Shown here piece by piece: positions 12,331 through 62,902 of a stretch of 64,000 bases of DNA. Under the pieces are notes generated by a model, which was given only the letters and a program-made list of their open reading frames with translations, was not told the origin of the DNA and did not search any database. This stretch comes from Ophelia neglecta. Taxonomy: Eukaryota. Every line of letters starts with the position of its first letter. Position 1 is the first letter of the stretch. The DNA lies in contig OZ260662.1 in assembly GCA_965285935.1 (NCBI GenBank), forward strand, positions 85,374,001-85,438,000, written 5' to 3'. The position numbers and the translations under genes are program-made.

Positions 12331-13392
12331 TCTTTTGTGCCAACTAAAAACTACCATATTCACTACCTCGCCTTATGCCATGTTCCCCATTCGATTATTG
12401 CACGCATTCGCGGATATACCCCTTGCTGTCGGCCCCCCGACAGCGTTGGCCTAGTTAATATGACGTAGTGAGCTTGGATGTAGTTTAATTTAGTCCCATG
12501 CATAAATATAGTACGTCGGGAAACTGGAGACTGTGGCCAGATCGGCAGATGCTCTGATTGTAGAATATAATGGGTACTATTCGTGTGTTCGTGGGTGTAG
12601 GACAATGCTTAATTTATGGAAATTTCGTCAGTTTTCTGAATTGATGGCTGGTCTCAGTGTAGTACCCCTGGTAAGTGATATGCTGGTTACGCATGTGTAC
12701 ATAAAGGGGGTTACTTCAAAAAGCTAGGTCTACTGGATAAAAACACAACATAACCTACCCTGAATTTTTAATATACTGTGGACATTGCATGAAACTTTTG
12801 TGACAGCTAAGCAGCAAATTGCCCGAATCATTAGAAATATACGGAATCTATACGAATGTCATAATGACCACCAATGGAAAATGCATTAGTGTTTTAAAGC
12901 CTATTTGGAGATTTTGAGCAGTTTTTCGTTTTTTTTTCAATATTCGTAAACTCTATTTATTTTTACTATGACCCGCAATTCAGCCAGGAATACTTATTTC
13001 GTCATGTTTTAGTTCATGAAATGATATTTTGGGCCTAAAATAGAAATTAAATCAGTTATAATAAATATCGATTTTTCTTCACATTTTTTTGCAATTTTAT
13101 TTAAACTTTACATTGTGCTTAAAAGACTGATTATTCGGCTTTACAGTGGCATATTTGTGTTGCTTATATCCGCAAAAGTGACGTATCTATCAACCAAAAT
13201 CTACCATTACCCCATTTAAAAAATGAAGTTTCCTCGATTTTACCAGTACTAACTACAGAGCGTCCGGCAAAATTTTGCCGCGTACAGAGCGTGACACCAT
13301 CCCAAAAAAGATGCATCGGTCATGGAATAAAAATCGGAGGCCATCGGGATAAAGATTGAACATTATTTCCATTTTTATTCCTGTATAGCCTA

Positions 13393-13530: not shown

Positions 13531-14428
13531 TTTTTCTGCTGGTTTATCTGGATGACTGTATGAGGTTTTAGAAAAATTAAGTGATAACCCAAAAGCAAAA
13601 TAGAAAGCAGCGCTAACATGCAATAACGTGAGAACATAACTGCAGAGTTTTTTGTGTCCTATCTAAAACGTTACTTTACCTGTATGCCTATGGTTTGTGT
13701 CCAAACTAATAAAATACCTGAACCATTTATTACGTGCACGGTTTGAACGAGGCCTTGATATTTTCTGTGACATCAAATGCTTAATTTTGTCAGTGAATCT
13801 AGCGTATTTAAAACAAAAGAAGCAAGATTATCATCGCGAAACTTTGCTGAAACTTACCAGTGCCATAGCTGTCCATAAGCACCTGAACACAGATTAAATT
13901 TCTAAGCCTTCACGCGGCTATTTTGCTTAATGATAACGAGCGTTACCAACAGTCGGTGGAGCACTGTGAATAGCCTATCAAGCGACTTTTAAGGAGACCA
14001 ATGTGTAGATGTAGCATATCTATATGCTTCAGAAACTACACAGCAGTAATATGTACTGACGACTTCTCGCATGACCGACGCCTTTCGACACATCAGTTTC
14101 CACCAGAAGTGAAAACCCGATGTGTGTACAAATATCATTATACATATTGTTGTTACACCAAATTCACATATTCGTAATGCCACGGACCGACAGAACGGAA
14201 CGTGTAGGCCTACTGGTTACTTGCCCCCTCTGTGTCTAACATGTGCATTTGCTGCGTTTATACAGAAGGAGACGTAACAACAAATGGAGCATTCTGAAAT
14301 GTTTTCAAGGAGAATTAGGGGGCGTGAAACCCGCAAAATAAAACACTTGTTCGACTTATCTATTATTTCTGTGGTGTATTCCCGTTTGTTTTGTGGTCAG
14401 TGAGATGAGAAGTTCGACATGAGCTGAT

Positions 14429-19034: not shown

Positions 19035-21930
19035 ATTTCTAGAAATTCTTGTGGACAAGTAAATGTTAGTTTTAGGACCCGTCGTGGTTTCTAGTCATTC
19101 TCGTAGAGAGGTACTGTAAGTTTTGGGACCGGTCGTTGTTAGCCCCGAGAAATTTCTAGTCATTCTCGTGGGGAGGTACTGTCGGTCATGGTATGCCCTG
19201 AGAAGTTTCTAGTCATTCACATAGAGAGGTAGGCCTACTGTTAGTTTTGGGACCGGTCATGGTATGCCCTGAGAAGTTTCTAGTCATTCTCGTAGAGAGG
19301 TAGTGTTAGTAGTAAGCCCTGAGAAATTTCTAGTCATTCTCGTAGAGAGGTGGTGTTAGTTTTCGGACCAGTCATGGTAAGCCCTGAGAAGTTTCTAGTC
19401 ATTCTCGTAGAGAAGTACTGTTAGTTTTGGGACCGGTCGTGGTAAGCTCTTAGAAATTTCTAGTCATTCTCGGAGAGAGGTAGTGTTAGTAGTAAGCCCT
19501 GAGAAATTTCTAGTCATTCTCGTAGAGAGGTGGTGTTAATTTTCGGACCAGTCATGGTAAGCCCTGAGAAGTTTCTAGTCATTCACATAGAGAGGTACTG
19601 TTAGTTTTGGGACGCGTCATGATATGCCCTGAGAAGTTTCTAGTCATTCTCGTAGAGAGGTAGTGTTAGTAGTAAGCCCTGAGAAATTTCTAGTCATTCT
19701 CGTAGAGAGGTGATGTTAGTTTTCGGACCAGTCATGGTAAGCCCTGAGAAATTTCTAGCCATTTTCGTAGAGAGGTCCTGTTAGTTTGGAACCGGTCATG
19801 GTAAGCCCTGAAAAGTTTCTAATAATTCTCGTAGAGAGGTACTGTTAGTTTTGGGACCGGTCGTGGTAAGTCCTGAGAAGTCTCTAGTCATTCTCTTAGA
19901 GAGGTACTGTTAGTTTTGGAACCGGTCATGGTAAGCCCTGAGAAATTTCTAGTCATTCTCGTAGAGAGGAAGTGTTAGTGGTAAGCCCTGAGAAATTTCT
20001 AGTCATTCTCGTAGAGAGGTGGTGTTAGTTTTGGGACTCGTCGTGGTATGCCCTGCGAAAGTTCTAGTCATTCTCGTGGGGAGGTACTGTCGGTCATGGT
20101 ATGCCCTGAGAAGTTTCTAGTCATTCTCATAGATAGGTGGTGTTAGTTTTGGGACCGGTCGTGGTAAGCCCTGAGAAACTTCTAGTCATTCTCGTAGAGA
20201 GGTAGTGTTAATGGTAAGCCCTGAGAAATTTCTAGTCATTCTCGTAGAGAGGTGGTGTTAGTTTTCGGACCAGTCATGTTAAGCCCTGAGAAGTTTCTAG
20301 TCATTCTCATAGAGAGGTACTGTTAGTTTTGGGACCGGTCGTGGTAAGCCCTGAGAAATTTCTAGTCATTCTCGTAGAGAGGTAGTGTTAGTGGTAAGCC
20401 TTGAGTAATTTCTAGTCATTCTCGTAGAGAGGTGGTGTTAGTTTTCGGACAAGTCATGTTAAGCCCTGAGAAGTTTCTAGTCATTCTCGTAGAGAGGTAC
20501 TGTTAGTTTTGGGACCGGTCGTGGTAAGCCCTGAGAAATTTCTAGCCATTCTCGTAGAGAGGTGGTGTTAGTTTTCGGACCAGTCATGGTAAGCCCTGAG
20601 AAGTTTCTAGACATTCTCGTAGAGAGTTACTGTTAGTTTTGGGACCGGTCGTGGTTAGCCCTGAGAAGTCTCTAGTCATTGTCGTAGAGAGGTACTGTCA
20701 GCTTTGGGAAGTAAGCGGCCTGTTTAACCCTGAGTGGTTTCTAGTCATTCTCGTAGACGGGATATGTTATTTTCATGACCAGTTTTGACTAGCCGTGAGA
20801 GGATTCTATTCCTTCTCATGGCTAGCTAAGTTAGTTGTAAGACTTTGTGTGGTTAGAATTATCCCTTGGGGTTCCTAGTCATTCAGGCAGACATGTTACT
20901 GCTACTTTTTTGACCCCGTCTTGGATAGCCGTGAAAAGTTTTCTCATCTCATTTTCTGTTACTGTTAGTTTGAGACCGGTCAATGGTTAGCCCTGAGCTG
21001 ATTCAATTCACCCTCAAAGAAAGGTACTGCTACTTTTAGGATATGTTAGGATAAAAAACCTCGAGAGGCTGCTAGTCATTCTTCTAAAGAGGTACTGATA
21101 GAATGGACCCGTCGTCAATGCCTTGAAAGGTTTCTATAGTCATTCTCATAGACAGATCTGTGCATGTAGGCTCATGAATCGTCTTGGTAGGCACTGAAAC
21201 GTTACTATTCATTCTCATAGACATATATACATGTTCTACAAGTACCTGAATGGTCGTGATTAGCCCAGAGAGGTTTTAGTCTATCTCGTTTAGTTTTAGT
21301 TCTAGGACACGTCCTGGTTAGCCTTGAAAGGTTTCTAGTCATTCTCTTATAGACACGTTCCTGTCATTTTAGGACCCGCAGTGTTTGGTCTTTAGAAGTT
21401 TCTATGTATTCTCATACACAATACTGATAGTTTTAGGATCCTTCGTGGTTAGACCTGAGAGGTTTCTTGTCTCACTCTTAGTTTAAGGACCTGTCTTCTT
21501 GGCTGTGAGTGGTTTCTAGAATTCTCGTAGACAGGTACTATAAGTTTTGGGACTAGCCTGATGGCCCTGCGAGGCTTGAAGTCATTCTCATCTACGAGAG
21601 GTACTGTTAGTTTATGGATTCGTCTTGGTTAACCCTGAGATGTTCCTAGTCATTCTCAATGACAGGTACTAACGTTAGTACTTTAAGCTCGGGCGGTGGT
21701 TAACCCTTTGAGGCCTCTAGTCATAATCGTAGACAGGTAATGTTAGCTTTAGTACCCGTGATGGTTGGCCCTTAGAGCTTTCAGGTCTGTCTCGAAGGCA
21801 AGTGCTTTAGTTTAAAGACCCGTGGTGGCCGCCCCGGAGAGGTTTCTTGTCAGGCCTGTAGACAGAGGCTATTAGTTTAAGGACTTGTGGTTAGAGACTA
21901 ATAGTTTAAGGACTTGTGGTTAGCTCTATA
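19035..21930. repeat. Satellite array with 65-bp and 50-bp monomers; homogeneous core ~19140-20700, degenerate on both flanks
   Basis: AAGCCCTGAGAA(A/G)TTTCTAGTCATTCTCGTAGAGAGG recurs with spacings 65/65/50 (for example 20281, 20346, 20396, 20461). Confidence 0.95.
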
Positions 21931-26971: not shown

Positions 26972-29900
26972 CTATTTTAGATGGACCGATAACTTTAAAG
27001 TTTACTTTTACAATTTGATTTATAGCCCGCTGCTGTCATGCAATACCAACGTAATAGTGTACGAGCTTTACAATTTTTTATTTTATGTTGGCTGTTCTCG
27101 AGTTTACTACATTTAGGACATTTACCTCATTACCGAAAGCAACTTATGTCCAAGTGATATCATTCGAAAGGTGCCAAGTATAGCATATAGATAGTTTTGA
27201 ATTCAACTAATTCTGATACTTATGTTTGGATCCCTTTTGCAAATTTTAAAGTAGTCCACATTCTAGACAATAACAAGTGTATCTTCAGAAGATGAATTAA
27301 TAATGTATATCCGCAAGTATTTTCTGAAAATCGGATGTACTAATGTTACATTATCTGCAAGTCATATATGTAAATCGTCAAGTTACAAACGAGTGCTTAC
27401 TGTCCGGAAAATGTAGCATTTAAATGGCGACAGAGACCTGACTGGGACACAGGTCATGTGAAGAATGTCTAACTCACTTTTTATTCAGTTGATATCTTGA
27501 ACACGGCACAAATGGGAACGGCGAGACTTTCTGTAATTGACGATACGATAATTTTGCTGAAATTATAAGAATGCATTTGGTAGTTTCAACTATACATATA
27601 AACTATAAATGTGTGTGTGTGTTTGTGTAAATATTTAAGCCTTTATTCATGATAAATTTGCATGTAATTGTGTGTGTTTTAGCTCTAGTTCACTCGTGAT
27701 AGATTACATGTAGAATGTTCTATTTGTTTCCATGTGGTATACTATACAAGCCTGCACCTCTAGCTTGTCTTCTGTCATTCAGAACGCAAAGGAGTATGAT
27801 GTCCGGAAACTTGAAAAGCAAATTCATGGCGATAGTGGTTATAATTTTCGCGCAAGCTTGTCAAAGGATTCGCAATTCTTCCTTATACACGTATATTCAA
27901 CCGACTTATGAGTATTGAACATAGGTCCTATAAGTTATGGTTACATTATTATATTTCAAACGCTTAAACAAATCTAAGACCAAGCAATGCTCAAAAAGCG
28001 CCAAGTAGGCCTAACATATAGATAAAAGATGAGATTCGACAATTCTGCTTGTAACAATATGCACACTTTTATTGACTAGAGGGTGTAGGTTATATGTGGG
28101 AAATCTTGCAAAAGTCTCGAGACTATTGTTCTTAAATCATTGACAAATCTTGTAAATTCCACTTATACATGTGAATCAACAGTTTTGTGTGGATAACATA
28201 CTGACGAATTAACCTTCACTGTAACTATTACGGTCGAAATTCCTTTAATAATTGACTTTCTTAGCGCATCAATCAATGCTTTAACAGGAGTCCACATGCA
28301 ATCCATACAACTAATTTAGTCAAAGGATCATAAATGAATCCTGAAGTTGTTAACCTTTCCGCGTAAATTTGTTTGCAAATGCTGCTTAAACAATGACAAC
28401 AAAATATCAAACGATTCCGTCTTGTGTGTCCTTAGATTTTACAACTTCCTCCTTCAGCCGCGAATTCTAATTGAAGAGAGATGCATTCATGCTTTAAGCA
28501 GTTTTGTAAGACAAGAGGATTTATATTAGTGCTGCCTAGTGGCCAGGAGTGTTCACACTTATTGTAGGCCCTGGTGATTTCTGTTTAGATCCTTGACATT
28601 TAGATCAAGAGAGTTTTGAATTTCCCGCCACGCTCTTTATGGTGCAGACGACTGCAGAAACCCCTGGACAATACACGCGTTACACAATCGATTTTGGCTC
28701 CTTTGTTTCATAATTGCGCTATAATTGTCGTTTGTACACTTCGATGATTTGCGTAAGCGGCCAGTCTTTTCCTTCATTGTTTCATCAATGTTTACCCACT
28801 AATTTGTATTTTATCATCTGTCAAATATGTACCACCAGTGGACTAATTATGATTTTCTTGCCTGTAATAAACTTTTGATTAACATCGACAATATCCCAAA
28901 ATATTTGCCCAAGTCTCCATCAAGCACCATTTAGATTCTTGTTCGGAAGCAGAGTGTCTTATTCAAATTATATGTTCAATCCTAAGATCGATTTTTATAT
29001 CATTATGTATACACAATTGTTATGAAATATTGATCCATTGGAACTTTTTCCATTCTATGAAATATTTATTCATAAATGCCTATATATGAGCCTGTATGTA
29101 CGTCGTACAGACTATTTTCCTACAAAACTCTGTCTTTAGTAAACGAGGTAACAAGTTTTTTTTCACGCTAGACCCCATTTCATCATACTTAATATTAATA
29201 AAACAAACTACACACATACGTTTCATTAAAAGTATCTAAAAGATGGGCGGGGATGGTTTTGAGGCAGAAGGATGTCTTGATCACCTCTATACAGTATGAT
29301 AAACGACCATCAATTATGGGTGACAGATATCTACACGAGACGTCTTTTGTTTGTATAGCTTTGAGTATGACTAGACTTTACAACTCGTATAGTGAGGTGC
29401 TGTCATTTTTCTTAACTACTTGATATATATTTCCGGTTAGGGTTGACTTTAATGACTTTTTTAATGTCTTAGAAATTGATTGTGAATGCTGTGTCATATT
29501 CAAGTACATTCTCGACCAATTTCAACGCATTTCCCTTCTTCTTCATTCCATAATTTACCGCCTTCAAAGTCAATTCAAGTTTGCGGCAGCACGTATACGT
29601 AGAAAGACCATTTCTTTAATGAATGTTCCTATAGCCCTAGTCTTCAATTAGCGTGTTTCTTGGATTTGAATTTTGTTGTATTGGTAAGTTAAGACTCTCA
29701 ATTTGTCAAATGTATACTAATTTCTTTAACGTAAGGGCACAAATAAGTCGTTAATTATTTGCGGTTCCTTTCATTTACTAGATTAAATCTGTTTGGTGAC
29801 CAGCGTTCGCTGACCAGCTTGGCCATTGCATCGGAATAGATCGGAAGATATATGAATATTAGAGGTTCCTTTATGAGAGGGGAGTGTTTAACACTAATAG

Positions 29901-35464: not shown

Positions 35465-36746
35465 GTAAACACCCTTGCGATAACTTAATACGGAAAATAA
35501 CTTATACAATAATCAACGATGGTGCTGTCTGTTGTTCAACATTGTAGCTTCTCTTTGTGTGAAAGAAGAATATACATAGGCCTACAGACCAAGTTCCGCT
35601 CCCCAATTTGTGGGTTCAGCCCGAGCCATCTTTAATACGCATTCTATGAAATAAATGCAGGGCTGTATTAACTGTATACTGCCATCAGAGCGTCAGGGCT
35701 GTGCATGTATGTGCTTGTAAACAACGTAGTGGGACATTATAGATAAATGTCACGGGATGGTTCATGATGACAATTACATGCACAAAAACACTGTATGCCA
35801 GGTCAATCCTAAATATTTTATAAACACCTAGTTTGCAACAGGAAAATAGAAACAATTTTACAAATTAGTATTAAGTGGGTTTTCCGTTTTGCAATTAAAG
35901 TGTACTGTCCTCTTGCCCGGTGTTGGTCGACGATAAAAAAAAATTGCACATAGAGTATAGGCCACTATGGCGGCAATAAATGCTCCGCTGATAGTTACTG
36001 GCTATGCAGTTGTCGTTAACAAGATGTCGTCTGCCTGGGCACTAATATCATATTATCATGACAGAAATCAAGCTGTCACTCGGGCCCTCGTCCCTAGCAT
36101 CTTCCTTCTGGTGAGAATTATCTCGGCCGGTCAGTGTTGGTACTTGGCGGGCGGTTTCACAGCACATTGTCAGGCATGTGGACACTCTCCCTGTTGGCCA
36201 TCCCCCATTGTTCGGGGAACGCCTGCTCCTTGTGGGGCGCCCCATTTTCGGCATTCAAGTGTAGACAGCACAACAATTGGTGACAATTCACTTGGCTGTA
36301 ATTGGCATTTAGAAAGTTTGCCAAGAAGTCAATGACTTAACATGAGATCGTGCGTCCAGCGTGTGGCCATTTCAAGTCCTTAGTTGCGCAATGTTTGCGA
36401 AGCAAAGAGCGCTTTTGAACGGCGTCGCAGTTGTTCACAAGTAGCCTATGTCAACTCGTGCCTCCTCAACTACAGAGCTTGTTCAATGGCTGAGAAGTAC
36501 TTAATACATCCTTTCATTGATATCGTTTACATTGTTAACCCCTCTATCGTATTTGATTTGAAATAGAGAACATGGACACTCTAGAAGCGATCAATCATTT
36601 TAAATGTTCTAGATTCATTACCATGACAGACTATTAACCATTCACAATATCAAAAGATATGTTACAAATAGATTCCTCACCCTCCGAACATTTGTTTTGT
36701 GGTTAATAAAAATAAATGCTAAATGTAATTTTATTTTATTTTGCAG

Positions 36747-37391: not shown

Positions 37392-39350
37392 GTAAGCAGC
37401 TAGATAACTTAAAGAAAACATGTCTTAATCAAGTCTCAAATAAAACACCTTAGGCATTTGATTGAAAGAACTGTATGTCCGTGCCATGATAAGTTACACG
37501 CCTGACAATCAATTTCGACATGTCCTTAATACCGTTGGGGCTTGATGTCGAGTGCCAATCTATTGTGTAAGAAAACTGTCAGTTTTTGTCACTTCGTAAA
37601 ACAAAATCTCCGTGATGGTTTCTTGGTCTCCCGGGGCCCCATTCAGGTGACGTGAGTGCGCGGTGAATGGCCGATTGAGAGTAATTACAAGATTAACAGA
37701 CCCGGGTGTGTACCTGGGCTCGCAACAATATTAGCACACCTAATAGTCCTGTGAGAATTCAGTCCCCGACACTCACTATACATGTTACTTGTCACCTCTT
37801 TCAAATAGCCAGCTACGACAGGCAAAACCTCTCACGGGATAACGGTTTTCTCAGATAAGAACTGTCACTATAAAATCTATTAAAGCATTTTTTATTCGAT
37901 TCCAAGTTTTGCTCTTACAATTTTCAAAAAGCCGTTTGTTTGTAAAACATACCAACGGAATAGTCAATTGTCGTGGAAAGTGCGCCAGAAGTTCAAGTCG
38001 ATTTGGTTGATAACAACTGCCTATTAACGGTTGATTGTTGCTTCGGAAAATTAAAATGAATCTGTTTATTCTACAGTTTTCTCTTTAACGGCCGCGACTG
38101 GGAATGCCCATATGATGGGCCATGATTGTATTAACAAAGATTGCTGCTTAATTAATTAACCTCCGGTTGGTCTAATTGGGAAATGTGACGGGAGAGGGGA
38201 CCGATTGAAAGGGAGCATCTGTTCAGGGAGCGGCCGGGGCCGACCATGTCTGCAGCGGTCAACTCGCGCCATATTGGCAGCGGCCAGACTCGGCAAAATT
38301 AGCTAGGTCACGGGGGAAATCGACCATACAGTGTATGGACACCCAAATTTATAAAATGCATGGTTTTTAAGTTTCTGGCATTCAAATTTGTCTAATACCG
38401 CAAAATCAAACGAGGTTGCCCGTAAAATTCGGCACATAGTTTAGACTTCGGAAGGAATGGGTAAAATTTCAACTCCGCATTTCCTTAAGTGATCAATGTC
38501 TATAAGAATGAATCTGGACAAAGTTAGTCCCTAAACCAACACTACATCCGTGCCGAGCCCATTAGAATATAACAAATACCGTGACAGCGGATCATCGCGC
38601 TAGAACCCAGCGCAATTCTCAGTGCAATATCCTTGATTCTCCTAATCAACGGGAACTAAGCAGAAAATTAGCGTCAGGATTTATGATGCTTGGAAAACTA
38701 CCAAGAATAATAAAACGCTCGGTGTTACTTCCTCGGGGAGTTTGTTAATTACTGAAAAACCCAGGTTTTGGACAAGCCACAATCGAAAATCACACTGGCA
38801 TTGTCTGCCATCGCATGTGGGCAGAGAATATAGCCAAGCATTGGTCGTGTTTGGGGAATAACTGGAAATGAAAATTAGGGATTTTTACTGCGTGTTGGAG
38901 CGCAGGGCATTAGGACCCTACCCGCATCGGAAAGGTGGTAAATCTGGCGGCTGGCATGACAAAGAGCAGGAAAGGCGGAACACTAGGATCCACTAATTTC
39001 CTCCCATGCGTGAAACCTCTGCCAAAATAGAAAAAACATAATGATACCCGTCGGTGACAAAGGCGTGATGACTTGATTATCATCAAATATTCATCATCAA
39101 CATGAGATTAGCTGGCTGCATATTCTGAAAAGCACGATCTACATCTAGACGTGTTTTAATATGCAACATAATATAGTATTTTATCCGAAAGTATCGAAAT
39201 ATTAGGTATAGGCCTATTTGTGTTTTATTTGTGAATCATAAGCACATTAATATATTGCACATAGATACTTATTGTACATTTATAAACGCCCTTGTTTTTC
39301 GTATTTTTCACGCTAAACAAACATTAACGTAGTATTTGTTTTGCTTTCAG

Positions 39351-43700: not shown

Positions 43701-46700
43701 ATGATATCACACATTCTGATTTCATTCTGGGATATTATTACATAAATTGCTTTGTATTCAATTTATTGACACAATCAGTAAAAGCAAGGCCATTTTCAAC
43801 TTCAGCAAAGTGGTAATGAGGTTTTATATGTACATGAGATATCTTACCTAGGCCTGTTATTTTGTTACGCAGATCAACCAAAAAGGCAAAAATGTGCAAA
43901 TATGAAAGTTGTTGATATTCTTTAGAAAGTTCCATGCAAAAGCAAATGTAGAGCGAGTATTTAACACTTAAAGTGCCAAGGAATTTCTTGTTGGTTTTGT
44001 TAAGCATTTGAGAATACCTCCACATAATACTGGCTTGCCTGTTAGCTGTAAATATTGTAATTATTATATTTATCAATTAATAGTCCCTACGTGATAGAAC
44101 AATTAATTACAGGTAGAAACCACAAATGGAGATATTTTGATTTTCGGCCGGTCGAATTTTCTATCTCGGTGAGCAAACTCGAAAGTATGACCAATTGGTC
44201 AACTAGACAGCTCGGATCAATGAGGTTTCTCCCCAAGCGATCTGGACAACGATTTTCAATGTACCAAACACGAAATCTTCTTTGAAACATATAGGTTAAA
44301 TTCGCCAATAAAAAATTATACTGTTCCATAAAGAGGCAATGTACCGCCTAAACTGAATAGCCGTGGCTAACCCGTCATGCTAACCATCTATATATTTAAA
44401 TTGCAGAGAAGCGGCTTAAATTTAGTGCTATTTATAATGGAGGAAGTTGATTATCTACAGTTTCCTCAAGAGCGCATGCCCATGCGTATACTGAGTCCGA
44501 AGAATAGGTTATTTAATATGTTGACCTGTTAGAAATAAGACAATTACCCGGCCGGGTGATCTTTAAGTTACACTTGTAAGCGGAACATGACCATTCACAC
44601 TCAACTAGGTTCTCAGCATGTGAAGGGCGAGCATTGTAACTGAGACAATCGTCTTAAAGGTGTGTTGTCAATTGCCACTGTTAGGAGTTAACGGGAGATC
44701 TTTATTGACCTGTTTACTCAGAGTCCTGCCTGCCTCTTATTGTATATGAAATTAATAAATCATATTGACTGGAAATTCGACCACTTTGATTTTTAGTCTA
44801 AAACCAGATAGATTTCAGGGTGCCACTGATTCCGCAACATTTGGATTAAATGGAATATATTTGGCTATGGCCCCATGCTTGTAAAAGTTATTGTGCATTA
44901 AGTTTCAAATTCTGGTGGGCTTAAAATACCTTGTCAGATCGGCTGACCGTCTCATACAACAGATATACTATATTTGTCCCAAAAAACTAAATGAAGAATT
45001 TGCGAGAAATCAGCACCTGATAATAGGCCTTGCCGACACATAGTTATAATAATTGGCATGGATCTTTAATACCCAAATTTAATCACAGAAGTATTAATAG
45101 AATAGTCAAATATCAGAGTGTTATAATTTTTAATGAATTAAATGAAACCAAATATTCTGAATGCCCCATGTCTAAATTTAAATGTTCAATAAAACTGTGT
45201 CTTCTTGACAAATTAAATGATTGAATCTACTACACTCAAAATCGATTGGGCTATATGGTTTACAGCCTTTATATTTATTATATGTACTTAAACGACCTGT
45301 TGGATCGTTCTCGTTTGGCAAATTGATGGGCTGGCTGTTCAAAATCAATTTGAAAATTAACTTTTTTTGTCCAGCAAAACTTACTTATTCCATATAGGCT
45401 AAAGGCATTAGGCCTATATGCAGGTATAAGATTAAGACCAAAAAATCGATAAATATTGCCTTTATATTTTTTTTATATATTATATTGCATTATAAAACAG
45501 ATATTCTCATTCTCTGTGTATATGTTGTGTTAACGTTGTATCTTGTAATACATGGATTTATTTGTTCTACTTGGTACTACACATTCATATGTGAATTGTG
45601 CAGAATTCGTATGACTTCCGGTTCCTGCAGACGAATGGCTTGTGCTGGTAATGTGGACTGTATTTGGTCAGCTTGTTGGCATTGTGACATGTTTAAGAAT
45701 CTTGTCTTTTGCAAAGCCAACTTGCGCCTCATTTTATTTCCGAAGCAGTTGATTAGATAATTACAGGAGATAAATGTTATATCACCTCTCGGATTACTAA
45801 TCATAGTCAGTTCGTGGCCGGCATATGGCGTTGTTACCAACAGGCGTCACACGGACCGGTCCGGGACGGGTAATCCCGGGTTTACCCAATCCCGTCCCCT
45901 GTGTACTGCATTGTTCTGCCGGTCACAATCCGACCTTGGCCACAGAAGATTGAATAATTATTAATGTGTGATTGAGAAATCAGCGTTTGTTCTTCTCCTG
46001 GGGATTAAACACATGCATAGAGTGTATAATAGGCTTTTGACTAAAACACCCAAATGTTCGGCCCAGCTAGAGAATAACCAATTGTTTTTGGAAAGTGTAT
46101 GCTAATTATAATATGACTCGTATATAGGCATATAGTAGAGCTAAATCGTCTCTCGACACGGCGGCAGTTGACAATAGCTTAATTTATTATTCCGAATCGG
46201 TTTCAGGCGAAGCTATATAATGGGTTTTGGAACTAATGAAGTCTAATAGTTTTTGTTGGATTATTTTACCTAAATCAGGCGATAATTTCGTGCTTCTGAC
46301 AAAAATCATTCAAAGTTTTATCCGCAAAATATACACTACCTTCTGTTACGGTTTTTCTTGTTTGAAACCACTACAGAGGTTAAGTGTTGTGGCATGAAAT
46401 ATGCAGTAAAGATACGGATTTGTTCTAAAATCCCTGAAGTATTGGAGGTGCGAAAGATTTTCTCCGAGGCCTAGTAAAGCTAAAACCGGGCAATCCTGAG
46501 CCCTTTACAGGGATACTTTCAGGGCGAAGGAGCCTCGATAATCAAAGTCATAAGCCCATTTTGTCGCCTCACAAATGGCCCTGTAAGACGACTTACTGCA
46601 AAATACTGTATTATTGATGTTCGAAAGCCTGAAAGTGCAGCGTAATCAGCTTAGAAAGACAATGGCTATAATGGCGTGTGTCGCAAGGGAGTGCCGACAC

Positions 46701-52843: not shown

Positions 52844-53394
52844 TATGCATTTTTCTCGTCTAAACTGGAGTGTCAATATTCCTTGATCTATAGCTTGTTT
52901 GACATTGACTCATAAACTTCAACGATTGCAGATCGCTGTAGCAAGGATTGTGACTAGATAGTCAAAATATGTAGTCACACGACACCGATTTTCAAAGAGA
53001 TGCATTGATTGCCAATCAAGCAGCGTATCATTTCAAGTTTCCTTGACTGTATTGAAAGCTCTAAACCGTTTAGCTCCATAACCCACATACCCACAGACAC
53101 TTGAGATCCACTAACTGTAATCTGCTCCTGGTTCCCAGTGTAAAGACTATACTAAGTATTATTGAGAAAGGTATTTTTCATTTGCCGCACCTAAGTTCTG
53201 AAATCTACTATAGGCCTACCACTGCATTAAGTACAAACTTCAGAATGTTTTAGTAGGGGTTGAACACACATTTGTTTAAAGAAGCGTATGACAACTATAA
53301 TTTTTTCTTGTATTCTAAATCGTGATGTTTGCTTTTTATCTCAAGTTATTGTGAATTTGACTTTTACTTTACTTGCTTTTTTTCTATCTAGTCG

Positions 53395-55939: not shown

Positions 55940-58900
55940 GTCTTTATTTGTCAGCGCTATACTAATTTTTAAACTTTAAAATCACTTTACTGTGAAGATA
56001 TTTTTTGAAATCAGTTAAATGTTAATCAGTTATTAGATATAATGTACCCATATTCAGATGATTATTCAAAACCAGGATTAAACCGGGAATGAATTTAACA
56101 GGGTAGACACGGGACAAACTCGAGGATGGAACAGTCGCGGTGATTAGAAATGCATTAATTATCTTAAAAGAACAATTTGCACGTATTAGAGACATTTGAA
56201 AACAAAAATCCATATAAATGAAAGCCTAGACAGACTTTATATAGGGGCCTATAATTTGTATGACAAATTCCGTAGCAGCTTAGAGTTTCACTGTAATCTT
56301 ACCAATATGACTCTTGAATATGATTCCTTCTCTTACAGGTTATGTAGGCCTATATAGGCTTTAAAAGTATTGGTTATTAAACATTGGACATAACCACTTA
56401 ATAGAAAATATTGGTCTAGTTATACAAGTTATACTAGTTAGGGAAGTAGTAATGTGATTGTAGTTGCCGCATTTTAAAGGTTCATTACAGAAAATCTATA
56501 ACAGCGACTGGTTCACTGACTGGGCGACTGATAAACACTGAGATCATAACCAGTGTGTTATAACGAGCCGTGGATAGGTAAACGCTGGCATGGTTCATTT
56601 ATATAGTTTATTGAGACAGGAATATGAGACAGGAACCCTGATTTGCTAAAACCAAAACACCTAGCTGTCAACATTTTAAGTGCCATATGTTCCGATTGGT
56701 TCTTTATTTGGAACTAAATATTACAGTCTTTTCTATCCCAGTCAATATTTGAGAAATGGCGTTCGTGGGATATATGTATGAACTCGCGGCAATCATTTTA
56801 TCGGGCGATATTAGACCCGCCTGGGGTTAGGGGGATGAAATGAGGAACATGTGGTCTATATATTTTTAGGTAGAACCATAGATATACAATCAATAATTAT
56901 TTCCTTTCCAACATAACCATATTTGGAACCAAATGACCTAGCTTAAGTCATGACAGTGGGACAGTGGGAAATTAACAAACCAAAGATTAAGATATGTTGC
57001 AGAATTAACCATCTTTAAGGTAGCAAAGCGAAGATTTCGGATCAACTATCATGCTTACTTTTAATGAACAAGGCAATCTTTTTACCTGATCATTTAACAG
57101 TGAATATGGGTTTTGGCTTAGGATCATAACACTGGATTCATTTATCAATATTTTTATTTGTTCGTGACAAAGGGATGCTGATAAATGCCATGTGTTTCCT
57201 GGTCGTTTCATGATGTTACCTCATCAGATTCTCTTTGACAAATTATCAGTGCATCTCGAGTTAAAATGAAGAGATACCATCAGATATTCACCTGCCGACC
57301 TTGGCTTATTGTTAAAGACTTTCATCAATTGAAAAGGTACTCGAATCTTTAATTCACATAGACCCGAGGGCTTACGGCAGCACTGCCGAGGCAGCTACAA
57401 TGAGGCTAGAAGCAGATTGGGAGCGACCTGCAACGCAGAATTGCAGAACAAATTGTACTTTTTTGATGGTACCTTAATTTTAGAGAGGGAAGATTTTGTC
57501 GTCTCAATACAGGACCAAGAATGCCTAATTAAAAGGTTTTTCTTTATAATCGGCGACATTGTGTTAATACAGGGTATTTAAGACCATCTGTTTTTCCCCA
57601 CTCAATCAAAAGAGTATGTATAGTATAGTAAAAGGTATAGTTGACTGCACAGTTAAGTCTGACCATTTGTTTCGACATTGCAGTCTGTATCACATGACAT
57701 TGTTCTGTATATTGCTTTAACTTTCTGTTCATTTAGACTAATATAATACAACCTGAATCCCGAGATCTAGAGCCTTAGTTCACCGCCAGTTCAAGATAGA
57801 AATTACCAAGAAACTTATAGTACAATTAACAATAATTAATACTTGGTATAATTACCGAAGAAAATCCACATATGTATATATCCGGGAACATTTATTTCAG
57901 ATTGTAGATATACATAATAATTAGTCTTTTAGCAATTGATTGTAAACTGCCAATTTTTTGACTTGGAGGGCCAGAGGGAATATTTGCCACTGATTTTGCA
58001 AATTAAACTGGCACTAATCTTTTGGGAACATATATCGGCCTACCGGTAGGGCAACTGCTGTATGACGACCGAGTGTTACCTGGAGGTAGTTAATTACAGA
58101 GTGATGTGATGTGAGACACCAGATGGAGTCCTCAGCCCCGGGGTAGGGGGCTTCTCTGTCATTTATCAAATTGTCACCAAGACACCCCGCTGGCCAAAAC
58201 CTGTTGCCCGATCAAGTCTCTATCGCAAGATTGTAGTTTAATTTAATTAAAGGCCAGTTTTCAATGCGAAAACTAAACACAAGCGAGGTGTGACAATAGA
58301 CCACCGGGGTATCCATGTCACACACGGGTTTTGTTGTGTCTCGGCTACATATTTACATATCCTATGTCCATACCTGCGGGCTTCCAGGCTTCTTGTTGCG
58401 TCACGGCTGCCTGGCACATGTCACTGCCTGTGTAAGAGATGATATCTCGGACAGATTGCCCATTGTCTCCACGTCTTTAACATGTTTGACGAGATGGTCA
58501 TACCGCCTAATGACTTCATTCCAGAGGCTGTAATAAGCCTTTAAAGTTTACACGAATGATTTTAATACCGGGAAGTTTTCAAAAGCAGTCTCTGGTGATG
58601 TAAGTTTAAATAAATGTTGCACTGTTAATTTTGGTTGTAAATTATCCAATAAACCAGTGTGCAATGTATCATGGGACATTTGTATACTTTCCCATACAAG
58701 GCCTAACCGAAAAAAGCCACTATCAATCTACAGGCCCAGCTCCCGGACACGGGGTGTATATACACACACACACACACATATATATAATATACACAAATCA
58801 TATTTGATCATAAGTGTTTGCCAACAAAGGAGACTTAGCCGAGTCGGAACTGATGTGATGTACCTTATCACGCCAGTTTTATTGTCATTTCAGCATTTTT

Positions 58901-61900
58901 AAAACGAGAGAGGCTGCTTGGGGGCATTTTCTAAACTTTCGGGAACCCAAAAATCTATAATGGAAATCCCATTTATTTCCTTTTAATTCAATTTAATCGA
59001 ATTTAATGAACATATTATTTCGGATTTTGCAAAATTATCTCAAGTGTGCGCCAATTATTAGAGAGGCATGTAAATTTACAGCACAAAACCAAGTGTATTA
59101 CTTGTGTCCCTGGATGGAAATTACCGACATATTATATCAGATAAGTCTATACCAAAACAATTATCTAGGCACACACAAAAAGCAGGATTCGCCAGTTCGT
59201 GCTAGGCCATTCCATTGCCCTTGCTCAAAATAGATATGTTTGAACTAAAGACTTGGTGTACTTGGGTTAGATAAATGTAGCAGGGCTTCCTATAAGGGGG
59301 CACTCAAATGGTTGCTCTATCGTATCTCCTACTGCTGTATAATTTATTTATCCCCCGACATTCTAATTTGATCTCTTGAAGCGCAATTTCCCCCTCTGAG
59401 TAATTGGAAAATAATAATCACTTAATTTTGTTTGCGCAAGGCGTCCTTCAGTTAATACGCCAGAAAAAGTAGTTCTAATTGCCGGACCATTATCGATGAT
59501 TAAAGAGCACCCCGGCGTTGCAAAAATCATTCCGCTCAGAATAAATACTGTATTGGGTCGTTCGGGATGAAGGCAAATCAAAATGTACATTATCATTATT
59601 ACTGAAAATTGTTGCAAGTGAATTATACTATTTTTGGCCTAATGTTGCGGCATATTGGTCTAGGGTCATAAAAACCTTTACAGTATGCGGAAAATCCGCG
59701 AAAAACAAATCATTTAATGTGTAGGAATCCAAAATGTGTATAAGAATTGACAAATGTGGCCATATCTGTCATTTGTGACGCGTTAATCATCGCAATTAGT
59801 GAGGGTGTATTGTATAAAATTACTATGATGAGCTAATCTGCTTATTAAATTGCAATTTTTCAAAGTAGACAAAATATAAGTTGTTTTAGTTTTGCTTTGG
59901 GTTATGACCGTTGAAAAATAGGCCGTCACATGATTGGAAGTTCTGTACAGTCAAGTCATAATCGGCCTCCCTGCTTGTAGGCTACAAACTGGTATTTAGT
60001 CTAGTGGTCTTCGACGAATTCGCACTAACGGTTGTTCATTCAAACTTAAAGCACAAATCCACTGCATGTTAGCAAGGAAGCGTAGTGATTGTCAAAGTAG
60101 TTGTATTATCATGTGAAGTCCTTTTACACCAATAAACAGAACAAAATTTACCTAATTCCCTGGGGGAGCTGACACTTCATATACCAATTAAACGACTATA
60201 CATACAATTAACTCTCAGGTCGGCACTAACAGTTTGTTGTATTTCTCACCATATTTAATTGTCTTGCCGGCTTTGGCCATATATCTTGCGCGTGTTATGA
60301 GGTGGTCAAGTGAACATTGAAGCCTCGTTTTAGTGACCAGCCATTGTTCGCCTTTTCAGATCAGACATGCCGCCGTGTTTCTTTTGTAGTATTTGTCTTT
60401 GATCGGTTCATCGAGATGAATACCAAGTCAATAGCCAGGCTTAATAACCATCTTGTACTCATTGTCTTCTAAATAGTTTTATTGACTTATTCTTTGCCGA
60501 GTTTGAGCGTCCTTTCACCCAGACGCGCCAGATCACCTGTTAGCAGACGACATTTTCCCATCACCGACCCGGGGCATGCATGCGTCAACTACCAATCACA
60601 GTCCGTTATGTGTCCACAAGTCGTCCAGCCTTTTTTTTTTTTAAAGAAAAGAAAAAGAAATATAGATCTATTTATTCAATAGAAATGTAGGCCTACGCAA
60701 TATGCTAAATTTAATAATAAATTGACATTTGAGACTACAGGCACGTCCTAATGTCGGGGCCATCACAAAAAATCTGATATAAGTTTAAAATCTCGTGATG
60801 GTCTGGTCCAGGACGTCGTCTGACACGTTTAGTGCCGGTTTGGCTGTACCAGAGTTTCACACACGTGGCACACATTAGGCCTATAACTCCCGTACTACAA
60901 TAGCTTGGTTACAATTAATCCCACAATGCACCAGTCCGCCGGTCAATTGAATTGACGCTCCACTCAACTATAGGAACCAGCTCACTCCAGATATTAAAGA
61001 TAATAGATGTTTAGATTGTTTTTAATGGCCCACTGAAATGGGCAAAAAACCTTGTTAAGCTAAATTGCCTGTGTTTATATGTTACATTGTATCGTGAATT
61101 TGTTGTGCCCATTTTATGCGCTATGTGTCAGCCCTACCATAATTTTGCAATGCATATAATGGTTTTAGATGCAGTGTAGGTCTATCGGCGGCATTGCCTA
61201 TGTATTCATATGGACTGGAGTTTATGTCTAATATTTTACGCCAGTTCATGGGTATATATGAACGGGTTTTCATTCGGCCACCGAAATATTTAATATTTTT
61301 CACGAGAGATTACAATTTATATGGTGATGCGAAATGAAATATATCTAGCGTTACTGGGTCTAAGTAAAAAAGAAATGCATGCAAATCATAAAGAAATATG
61401 GCAATCATAGTTTCATCTATTGACATACATAAACACATGCACGGACTCACATACTGTCAAAGTGAAGAGAATGGAAATCAAATGGGCGAAAATTACATGT
61501 ACAAATAACTTTTTGTTGCATTATACAAGTAATAAGGATGGCAATTCATCTTTCCGGAGTGGTTATCGCCGACAAGTGTCAACAGCGTCTTGTTGATAAC
61601 GAGACCACGAGATCTCACAATCCTGGGAACGCTACATGATAACATTTGGAATACTTCTGTTTAGTTCTCAACAATCGCGCGAATGAGTTGACTGTCGAAA
61701 TGTAGGCTTTGCTAATAAATGAATGTGATTTATGTTGGCAGTTCGAATATGGCTACTCGGTATATAGGCCTATAGGCGTGTGAGATGGAACACTAAGGAC
61801 AAAGAGCAGACGACATAAAATGGTCGACTGGCTAGATCACCTGGCCAAATAACACCATACATCAAATCAAATGAACACAGCCTGCCACTTGAAAATTTGT

Positions 61901-62902
61901 AAATCAGATCCACGAGGTGGCCGCTGGTATCATTGAGATGTCACTACTCGTTTTTTACTCGATTATTCTGCTGTGTTGTTTACTTTTCCGAGGTGTTTTT
62001 ATAACGCGTCTAGTGTGACTGAAGATGAAGCCAACAGCCGAGCTTTAAACCAACAACTACACGTGCATCACTTGCCAAATTCCCACACTCTTTTTACCTC
62101 GATTTTTTATCAGGTTTATTTGACAAGTTGAGATCGTACACTGCTTTGTGTTACCCAAGTCACACCTTGATAGAAGCCTGCCCTGGCTGGACCCCCCCCC
62201 CCCCACCGTCTCCCCCTCCCTCGAGGGTTCTCTGCTATGATTGTCGCATGCAGGTAGGTAGGCTGATAGACGCTATTACAAGCCAGTCCTGAAACTGAGT
62301 CCACTATCAGACCACACAAACGAGGAAGAATGGCGTCTTTTTGGATGTCGTTTGACTTGAAAATGGAATGAAAATAAAACGGCGCCTGTATGCATTGCTG
62401 GAAATTGAATTGTGAATTGGGCCTTTGAGTGCACAGGGGAGAAGATCACGTGCGCCGAGTCATGCCCCATGGGATAGGTCGGTGCTCGAGTGGACACACC
62501 TGGTAACGGCGTCCCATGTACACACAATCTATCGGGCTGAACTAACAGGACGCCGCCGATAACTCAGCTAAACTCAGCTAAATTAAATATCTCATCCCCA
62601 TCCTTTATTCTCCTTACCGTCCATTGGCGGAGACGCTACATCTTTTAATTAAAACTCTCTCATGGGATTATCTCAAACCTACCATAGCATTGTTTGGCAG
62701 ACGACGACAAATCCTAGCGGCCATTGATGATCAATAAACGTATTAAGTTTTAGGAGCAGTTACCGTTAGAGATCAAAGGGTACAGTTCATTGAACTCACT
62801 CACTTCGACCGTGACCACAGAATCACCTCACATAAATGTTGACCTAAAAGGATCGATCGATTTGCTTGTAGTTATAAAAAACGAACGCACTGTGTGAAAG
62901 TG

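Follow-up and report, generated by a model that had tools for sequence, protein, structure and literature searches.

A dominant genomic octamer of Ophelia neglecta as the probable excision footprint of GG-ended pogo transposons

Excision of Tc1 leaves two-base, non-complementary 3' overhangs (PMC4490562), and the footprint of this element in C. elegans, taCATGta (PMC3520976, citing Eide and Anderson 1988), is made up of two letters from either end of the element, enclosed by the duplicated TA. The cited descriptions present this footprint as rare (PMC3520976) and germline repair after Tc1 excision as giving varied deletions (PMC4490562). Sleeping Beauty, ZB, and Passer likewise target TA and leave end-joining scars with 0-4 element-derived bases (PMC2874221, PMC7913693, PMC9976928), flanked by the duplicated TA (PMC2874221). 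Their footprints come from cell assays and are of mixed lengths, and a genome-wide word of this kind is not described in the literature searched. Passer, whose footprints are 0-4 bp long (PMC9976928), is a pogo element and, as the Fot and Fot-like elements, is classed as DD35D (PMC7386202). The latter are described (Gao et al. 2020, PMC7386202) as pogo elements with HTH_psq and DDE_1 domains, TA duplication, and short terminal inverted repeats (TIRs), and are listed from fungi, protists, and algae, with sizes up to 5.2 kb. The pogo elements have been less studied than Tc1/mariner.

In the genome of O. neglecta a comparable word, TAGGCCTA, has GGCC in the middle and is connected with donors of the pogo type, unlike that of Tc1, and a single product dominates instead of being rare. 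Very probably, the copy at position 19230 of the window (the whole 64-kb stretch of DNA analysed) and most of the ca. 60,000 excess copies in the genome are excision footprints of resident pogo-superfamily transposons with GGGG...CCCC ends. The Tc1-type word TACATGTA is enriched here too. Excision footprints are an already-known process; what is added here is that scars pile up in element lineages that are active, and that the clade richest in scars carries a HIRAN-domain gene. We describe an animal clade of GG-ended pogo elements that has a leading genomic word as its probable footprint, together with an internal, family-matched scar record. In the literature searched (most subscription journals and Repbase being outside its scope) TAGGCCTA as a whole word was not found, and titles and abstract openings gave nothing on topic for GGCCTA as a transposon footprint.

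The window contains 14 copies of TAGGCCTA as against ca. 1 expected under an order-3 Markov model (28 against 1.9 when both strands are counted). An earlier sequence-only reading of the window had listed these copies and estimated the expectation by hand, and the 14 coordinates proved exact. The enrichment which it proposed to look for in the genome (an assembly of 762 Mb with seven large contigs) was also found. In a random sample of 52 spread 10-kb stretches, 442 kb of which was left after tandem-repeat masking, TAGGCCTA occurred 42 times versus 6.0 expected under a Markov background, i.e., ca. 7-fold enriched, and ranked first among non-homopolymer 8-mers; this gives ca. 60,000 excess copies genome-wide. 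Its whole-genome count is 69,501, compared with 3,592 for the reversed word, a lenient control since it contains CpG, and with 17,017 for the CpG-free word ATGGCCAT. The excess persists after masking, with diverse flanks, and the copies are clumped (variance 2.2 versus mean 0.83 per 10 kb). In the window, the word is roughly twice as frequent as in the genome on average (12 non-array sites versus 5.8 expected, p=0.016). The variant words pointed out in the sequence-only reading are indeed present in the window, but TAGCCTA/TAGGCTA are not enriched in the masked sample (44 versus 39.4), where TAGGGCTA (11 versus 6.9 expected) was counted as not enriched as well. A one-mismatch decay test gave 1.33 for TAGGCCTA and 1.31 for a control word. 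With about one scar per 13 kb, transposon excision would be a visible source of small insertions, and motif finders would take the top-ranked scar word for a regulatory site.

The origin of the word by insertion at a TA can be followed in the local satellite. At 19207 begins a 71-bp unit reading GAGAGGTA-GGCCTA-CTGTTAG, while the sister unit at 19573, with CACATAG in common, has 65 bp and lacks GGCCTA, just as had been noticed in the bare sequence. Among 27 satellite units one carries GGCCTA, 16 have a plain TA, and 10 show point variants at that place. A predicted excess of GGCCTA insertions at TA was confirmed by an all-against-all comparison of 1.29 Mb of loci, in which 44 of the 147 distinct TAGGCCTA sites had a paralogue: an empty-TA sister was present for eight of these 44 testable sites and for none of 111 control sites. 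The controls were nine palindromes, seven of them of the form TA-xy-x'y'-TA with no corresponding pogo end class found. Seven of the eight cases were classified by a script and one (L113:222), showing an alike 6-bp difference, was added by eye; seven lie inside pogo elements, which were oversampled, and one in the window. Many of the remaining testable sites are shared copies of a single event. Several GGCCTA insertions are private to one copy among 4-10, and the direction of the change, set by lone scarred copies amid several empty ones and by outgroups, is that of insertion. As in an excision footprint, the inserted letters duplicate the TA of the empty site. TAGGCTA, TAGCCTA, TAGGCCCTA, and TAGGGCCTA were also seen as real 5- or 7-bp insertions in repeat copies, and a scar at L124:6518 lies within a transposase reading frame bearing one TAG stop. 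Indels between haplotypes, which had been suggested as a check, were not observed at 56242 or 56345 in the contigs over 56000-58745 from three runs of one individual.

Candidate donors were located by a DDE_1 search and examination of the flanking DNA. TA-flanked TIR elements carry CA, CC, GA, AC, and GG ends, and among them there are at least eight GGGG-ended types (TA-GGGG...CCCC-TA), several with transposases. A TA-targeting element with GG...CC ends, predicted from the window, is therefore present in the genome, and the proposal that such an element left the scars is supported by these donors along with the paralogue comparison. They have the DDE_1 transposase, TIRs, and TA duplication of the pogo superfamily, and their terminal bases are the middle letters of TAGGCCTA. 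L057 is 6,381 bp long, with 27-bp TIRs beginning with TA-GGGG and a 728-codon transposase frame comprising HTH_psq and DDE_1; the DD35D spacing was found in L057, L135, and L240, and HTH_psq in these three and in L235. By their sequence, these features appear to match the published description of Fot/Fot-like pogo elements; unlike the elements of that survey, those found here reside in an animal, reach 6.4 kb, and in some cases have a second ORF, HIRAN or F-box (the latter at L135:5750-6283, within a GG-ended pogo element). Unnamed DDE_1 plus HTH_psq clusters are known from arthropods and molluscs.

The 4,478-bp element L240 has an empty site persisting in its host repeat (1,101 matches to the host-site pattern, all of the first 100 listed being empty), and the comparison of the full site with the paralogous empty ones shows that TA was duplicated on insertion. 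Of the trio of empty, full, and scarred states sought at one locus, the first two were thus seen at the L240 host site, but not the scarred one. A 410-bp GG-ended miniature element (L139, L140, L147, L148, L155) lies within a larger repeat and has multiplied along with this host; no exact empty or scarred version of its host site was found at these loci, and the trio search in this host repeat gave 0 matches, few being expected. GG elements are scarce beside the ca. 60,000 scars (17 ends for the L057 family; 698 loose matches versus 490 for the control), which speaks against the explanation. The L057 and L125 types, the scar-richest GG lineage, would be the likeliest main source. At L110/L111 the second TA of a TAGGCCTA has served as the insertion site of a GG-ended element, which suggests reuse of the site. 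The AC-ended pogo elements at L137:4080-7166 and L133:5605-8196 have very long frames, exceeding 1,000 codons in L137, as well as additional ORFs of a repetitive kind.

By analogy with Tc1 biochemistry, excision is predicted to cut two bases inside each end, so that TA with a GG overhang at the 3' side would stay on each flank; filling-in and end joining would then produce TA-GG-CC-TA, and the loss or gain of a base TAGCCTA, TAGGCTA, or TAGGCCCTA. We infer that excision was the cause of the scars. Owing to many hops per element, neutral scars in the tens of thousands could stem from a few hundred elements, with some scars later multiplied within repeats. The very frequent activity assumed in the sequence-only reading is not required, as a rough steady-state sum for 60,000 scars, with assumed mutation rates of 2e-9 to 1e-8 and an assumed 200-1,000 elements, gives ca. 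1e-6 to 2e-5 excisions with a scar for each element and generation. With such modest rates the rarity of the donors is no paradox; were the L057/L125 lineage (tens of copies) the only source, the required rate would be about tenfold higher.

If the scar generally consists of TA, the first two element bases, their complement, and TA, then each end class should leave its own scar word. TACATGTA is the second-strongest word (63 versus 18.5 in the 442-kb masked sample) and CA-ended elements are the most abundant; TAGATCTA (23,056 versus 13,276 for the reversed word genome-wide) and TAACGTTA are mildly raised. The five GA-ended families support the rule by an excess of their own scar: they contain eight copies of TAGATCTA with different flanks in 25.5 kb versus 0.77 expected from the genome-wide rate (ca. 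10-fold, p about 2e-6), which makes 8 of 11 TAGATCTA copies in 19% of the element length (p=2e-4), and two of these copies were shown to be insertions. A TACCGTA insertion was located in a CC-ended element. The preference for cognate elements is not significant for either GG (13/31, p=0.055) or CA (8/18, p=0.07). A purine precedes TA in 36 of 49 GG ends (73%) and 219 of 317 scars (69%), compared with 52% of all TAs; at position -2, GG ends and scars differ (p=0.01). It counts against the explanation that the enrichment of TACCGGTA is only weak (5 versus 3.1 in the masked sample; 12,128 copies genome-wide) in spite of the youth and large number of the CC-ended families. Since a scar spells the end of its donor, scar words would constitute a family-resolved record of past jumps and of germline target choice, covering even elements that are now rare.

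The scars pile up within the element lineages themselves. TAGGCCTA occurs 13 times in 35.9 kb of GG elements versus 3.4 expected, and also in GA (8 versus 2.4) and CC elements (8 versus 2.3), with none in CA elements (3.3 expected). GG-type words number 13 in the 6.4 kb of L057 and seven in the 5.5 kb of L125, and zero in L235, L233, L228, and L229; sister subfamilies of L057 bear differing scars. Large GA and GG copies gained six GG-type scars per 1,900 mismatches to the nearest paralogue (seven with one missed by the script), compared with one per 7,724 mismatches in random-sample repeats (three with two missed by the script); for 7 versus 0.74 the p value is about 1e-5. Nineteen non-autonomous 2.1-kb GA copies have shared scars only, with no private ones in 466 substitutions. 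Scars thus appear to arise chiefly on lineages that propagate, the counts being small. The pile-up may be due to chromatin being open at active copies, to local hopping, or to autointegration followed by rescue. Sleeping Beauty is described as targeting its own TA sites in autointegration and local hopping, larger elements more often, and autointegration as suicidal (PMC3952818, PMC2874221). An alike process could be a source of the internal scars, and the survival of an element with an internal scar after autointegration is a matter of speculation. As GG scars are also present in GA and CC elements, self-insertion alone cannot explain the pile-up.

A separate HIRAN-domain ORF (PF08797) lies upstream of the transposase gene in L057, L236, L055/L056, and L058, with a fragment in L126, and is conserved as a second gene of pogo elements that have GG or GA ends. 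In a quick transposase tree, built from proteins of this genome only and with a wrong ORF in row CC_L067, L057 clusters with the GA families with a support of 96. HIRAN domains bind 3' ends of single-stranded DNA. The literature search revealed nothing linking HIRAN to DNA transposons. The participation of this gene in scar formation is speculative, as no HIRAN ORF was found in L125, L120, or L121, all scar-bearing. We regard as rather doubtful a scenario in which active pogo lineages log their own jumps internally and the HIRAN gene steers repair to the full TA-NN-N'N'-TA scar. Mobile copies, own family included, would then be preferred targets, possibly by way of autointegration from which another excision with end joining rescues the element, and the HIRAN product would attach to the 3' overhang left at the emptied site, the effect being strongest in the clade of the L057-type GG and the GA-ended families. 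Internal scars would in that case identify the donor and count its hops, and a transposon-encoded factor would write its signature into the host genome. The in-lineage scar excess and the HIRAN gene offer starting points for tests of how pogo elements choose their targets and how their donor sites are repaired.

Other explanations of the TAGGCCTA excess have to be weighed against excision of the GGGG-ended pogo elements. That the footprints come mostly from another GG-ended family, be it another ITm clade or an extinct one, is improbable. Such a source is suggested by the small number of extant GGGG ends and by the flank mismatch at position -2; moreover, DDE_1 and DDE_3 scoring covered the best candidates in a subset of loci, and 30 DDE_3 loci had no assignable TA-flanked TIR pair within about 1.5 kb of the match. 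Against it, 584 kb of random sample plus window gave no further abundant repeat boundary starting with TAGG, modest rates satisfy the steady-state sum, and the L057/L125 lineage is itself loaded with such scars. The footprint of ISL2EU (PHIS), in which an AT duplication around GG...CC ends gives ATGGCCAT (PMC4482050), was rejected: the duplication here is TA and not AT, and ATGGCCAT is not enriched (9 versus 11.3 in the 442-kb masked sample).

A host repair or replication process writing GGCC at TA sites where no element was ever inserted would agree with the very stereotyped insertion and with the scarred sites having yielded no intermediate, but the inserted letters track the element ends, GATC being inserted in GA-ended elements, and the seven control palindromes without a pogo end class had no empty sisters; we hold this to be very unlikely. 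Scarcely credible, finally, is that TAGGCCTA is a selected protein-binding site or a repeat passenger and that the apparent insertions are deletions between two TAs. Tandem arrays do multiply the word, as at 4138 and 4239, its counts are clustered, and for Phytophthora it has been argued that TACATGTA is a site for a transcription factor (PMC3520976). However, the excess outlasts masking with diverse flanks, deletion is contradicted by the polarity of the change (one scarred copy versus many empty ones and outgroups), and one copy, that of L124, lies within a transposase frame bearing a TAG stop.

The sites within the window, together with the HIRAN ORFs, are given in Table 1. Twelve of the 14 copies stand as separate candidate scars, but those at 4138 and 4239 are units of one array, whose other units read TAGGTCTA or TACGACTA with length unchanged. 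Of the 11 dispersed sites without a paralogue for comparison, judging by the enrichment, most should be scars and about one a chance occurrence. A paralogue search over 56000-62100 returned microsatellite matches only.

Table 1. Features of the window (plain numbers) and HIRAN ORFs of sampled loci (L numbers)
Feature	Position	Strand	Basis
TAGGCCTA, TA lengthened by GGCCTA, likely footprint of GG-ended pogo excision	19230..19237	.	unit comparison
Local 50/65-bp satellite, source of empty-TA sister units	19036..20709	.	
Nearest sister unit, CACATAG variant, without insertion	19573..19637	+	unit comparison
TAGGCCTA, dispersed, probable scar, without testable paralogue	3823..3830	.	word count
Two TAGGCCTA copies in a 30-bp tandem array, not independent insertions	4138..4246	.	
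TAGGCCTA, dispersed, probable scar	14205..14212	.	word count
TAGGCCTA, dispersed, probable scar	28006..28013	.	word count
TAGGCCTA, dispersed, probable scar	35577..35584	.	word count
TAGGCCTA, dispersed, flanked by two zinc-finger exons, probable scar	39209..39216	.	
TAGGCCTA, dispersed, probable scar; TAGGCTA at 45395	45409..45416	.	word count
TAGGCCTA, dispersed, probable scar	53211..53218	.	word count
TAGGGGCCTA, possible longer scar of a GGGG end; same-sample contigs without indel	56242..56251	.	
TAGGCCTA, dispersed; same-sample contigs without indel; first T is G in 2/3 runs	56345..56352	.	
TAGGCCTA, dispersed, probable scar	60688..60695	.	word count
TAGGCCTA, dispersed, probable scar	60876..60883	.	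word count
TAGGCCTA, dispersed, probable scar	61765..61772	.	word count
HIRAN ORF	L057:1591-2034; L055:5237-5635; L058:5223-5630; L236		

Inverted-repeat scans of the window gave no convincing GG-ended element. An AT-rich inverted pair at 44505/49294 starting with TAGG is weak, has no second copy in the sampled loci, and is probably due to chance. A repeat ending with CTAGGCCAACG at 12453 was rejected as a GGCC-ended donor: its copies share bases past the TA, and a hairpin precedes its CTAG end. The corresponding region, 11160-12457, is a non-autonomous repeat that is abundant and that we take to be Helentron/HINE-like. Inside it are repeats of 152 and 101 bp, its inverted repeats are short and subterminal, and it has a GC hairpin and ends with CTAG. 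The 29/30-bp tandem array at 4103-5337 comprises one part with TAGGCCTA or TAGGTCTA and another with TACGACTA at the same position. The genes of the window, named from their translations, include exons of a cyclic-nucleotide-gated channel-like gene, a glycosyltransferase-like ORF, and a zinc-finger gene. Elsewhere in the genome, at L171:4640-9770, eight copies of TAGGCCTA occur in 10 kb, in TA-rich DNA around an exon reading as caveolin-like.
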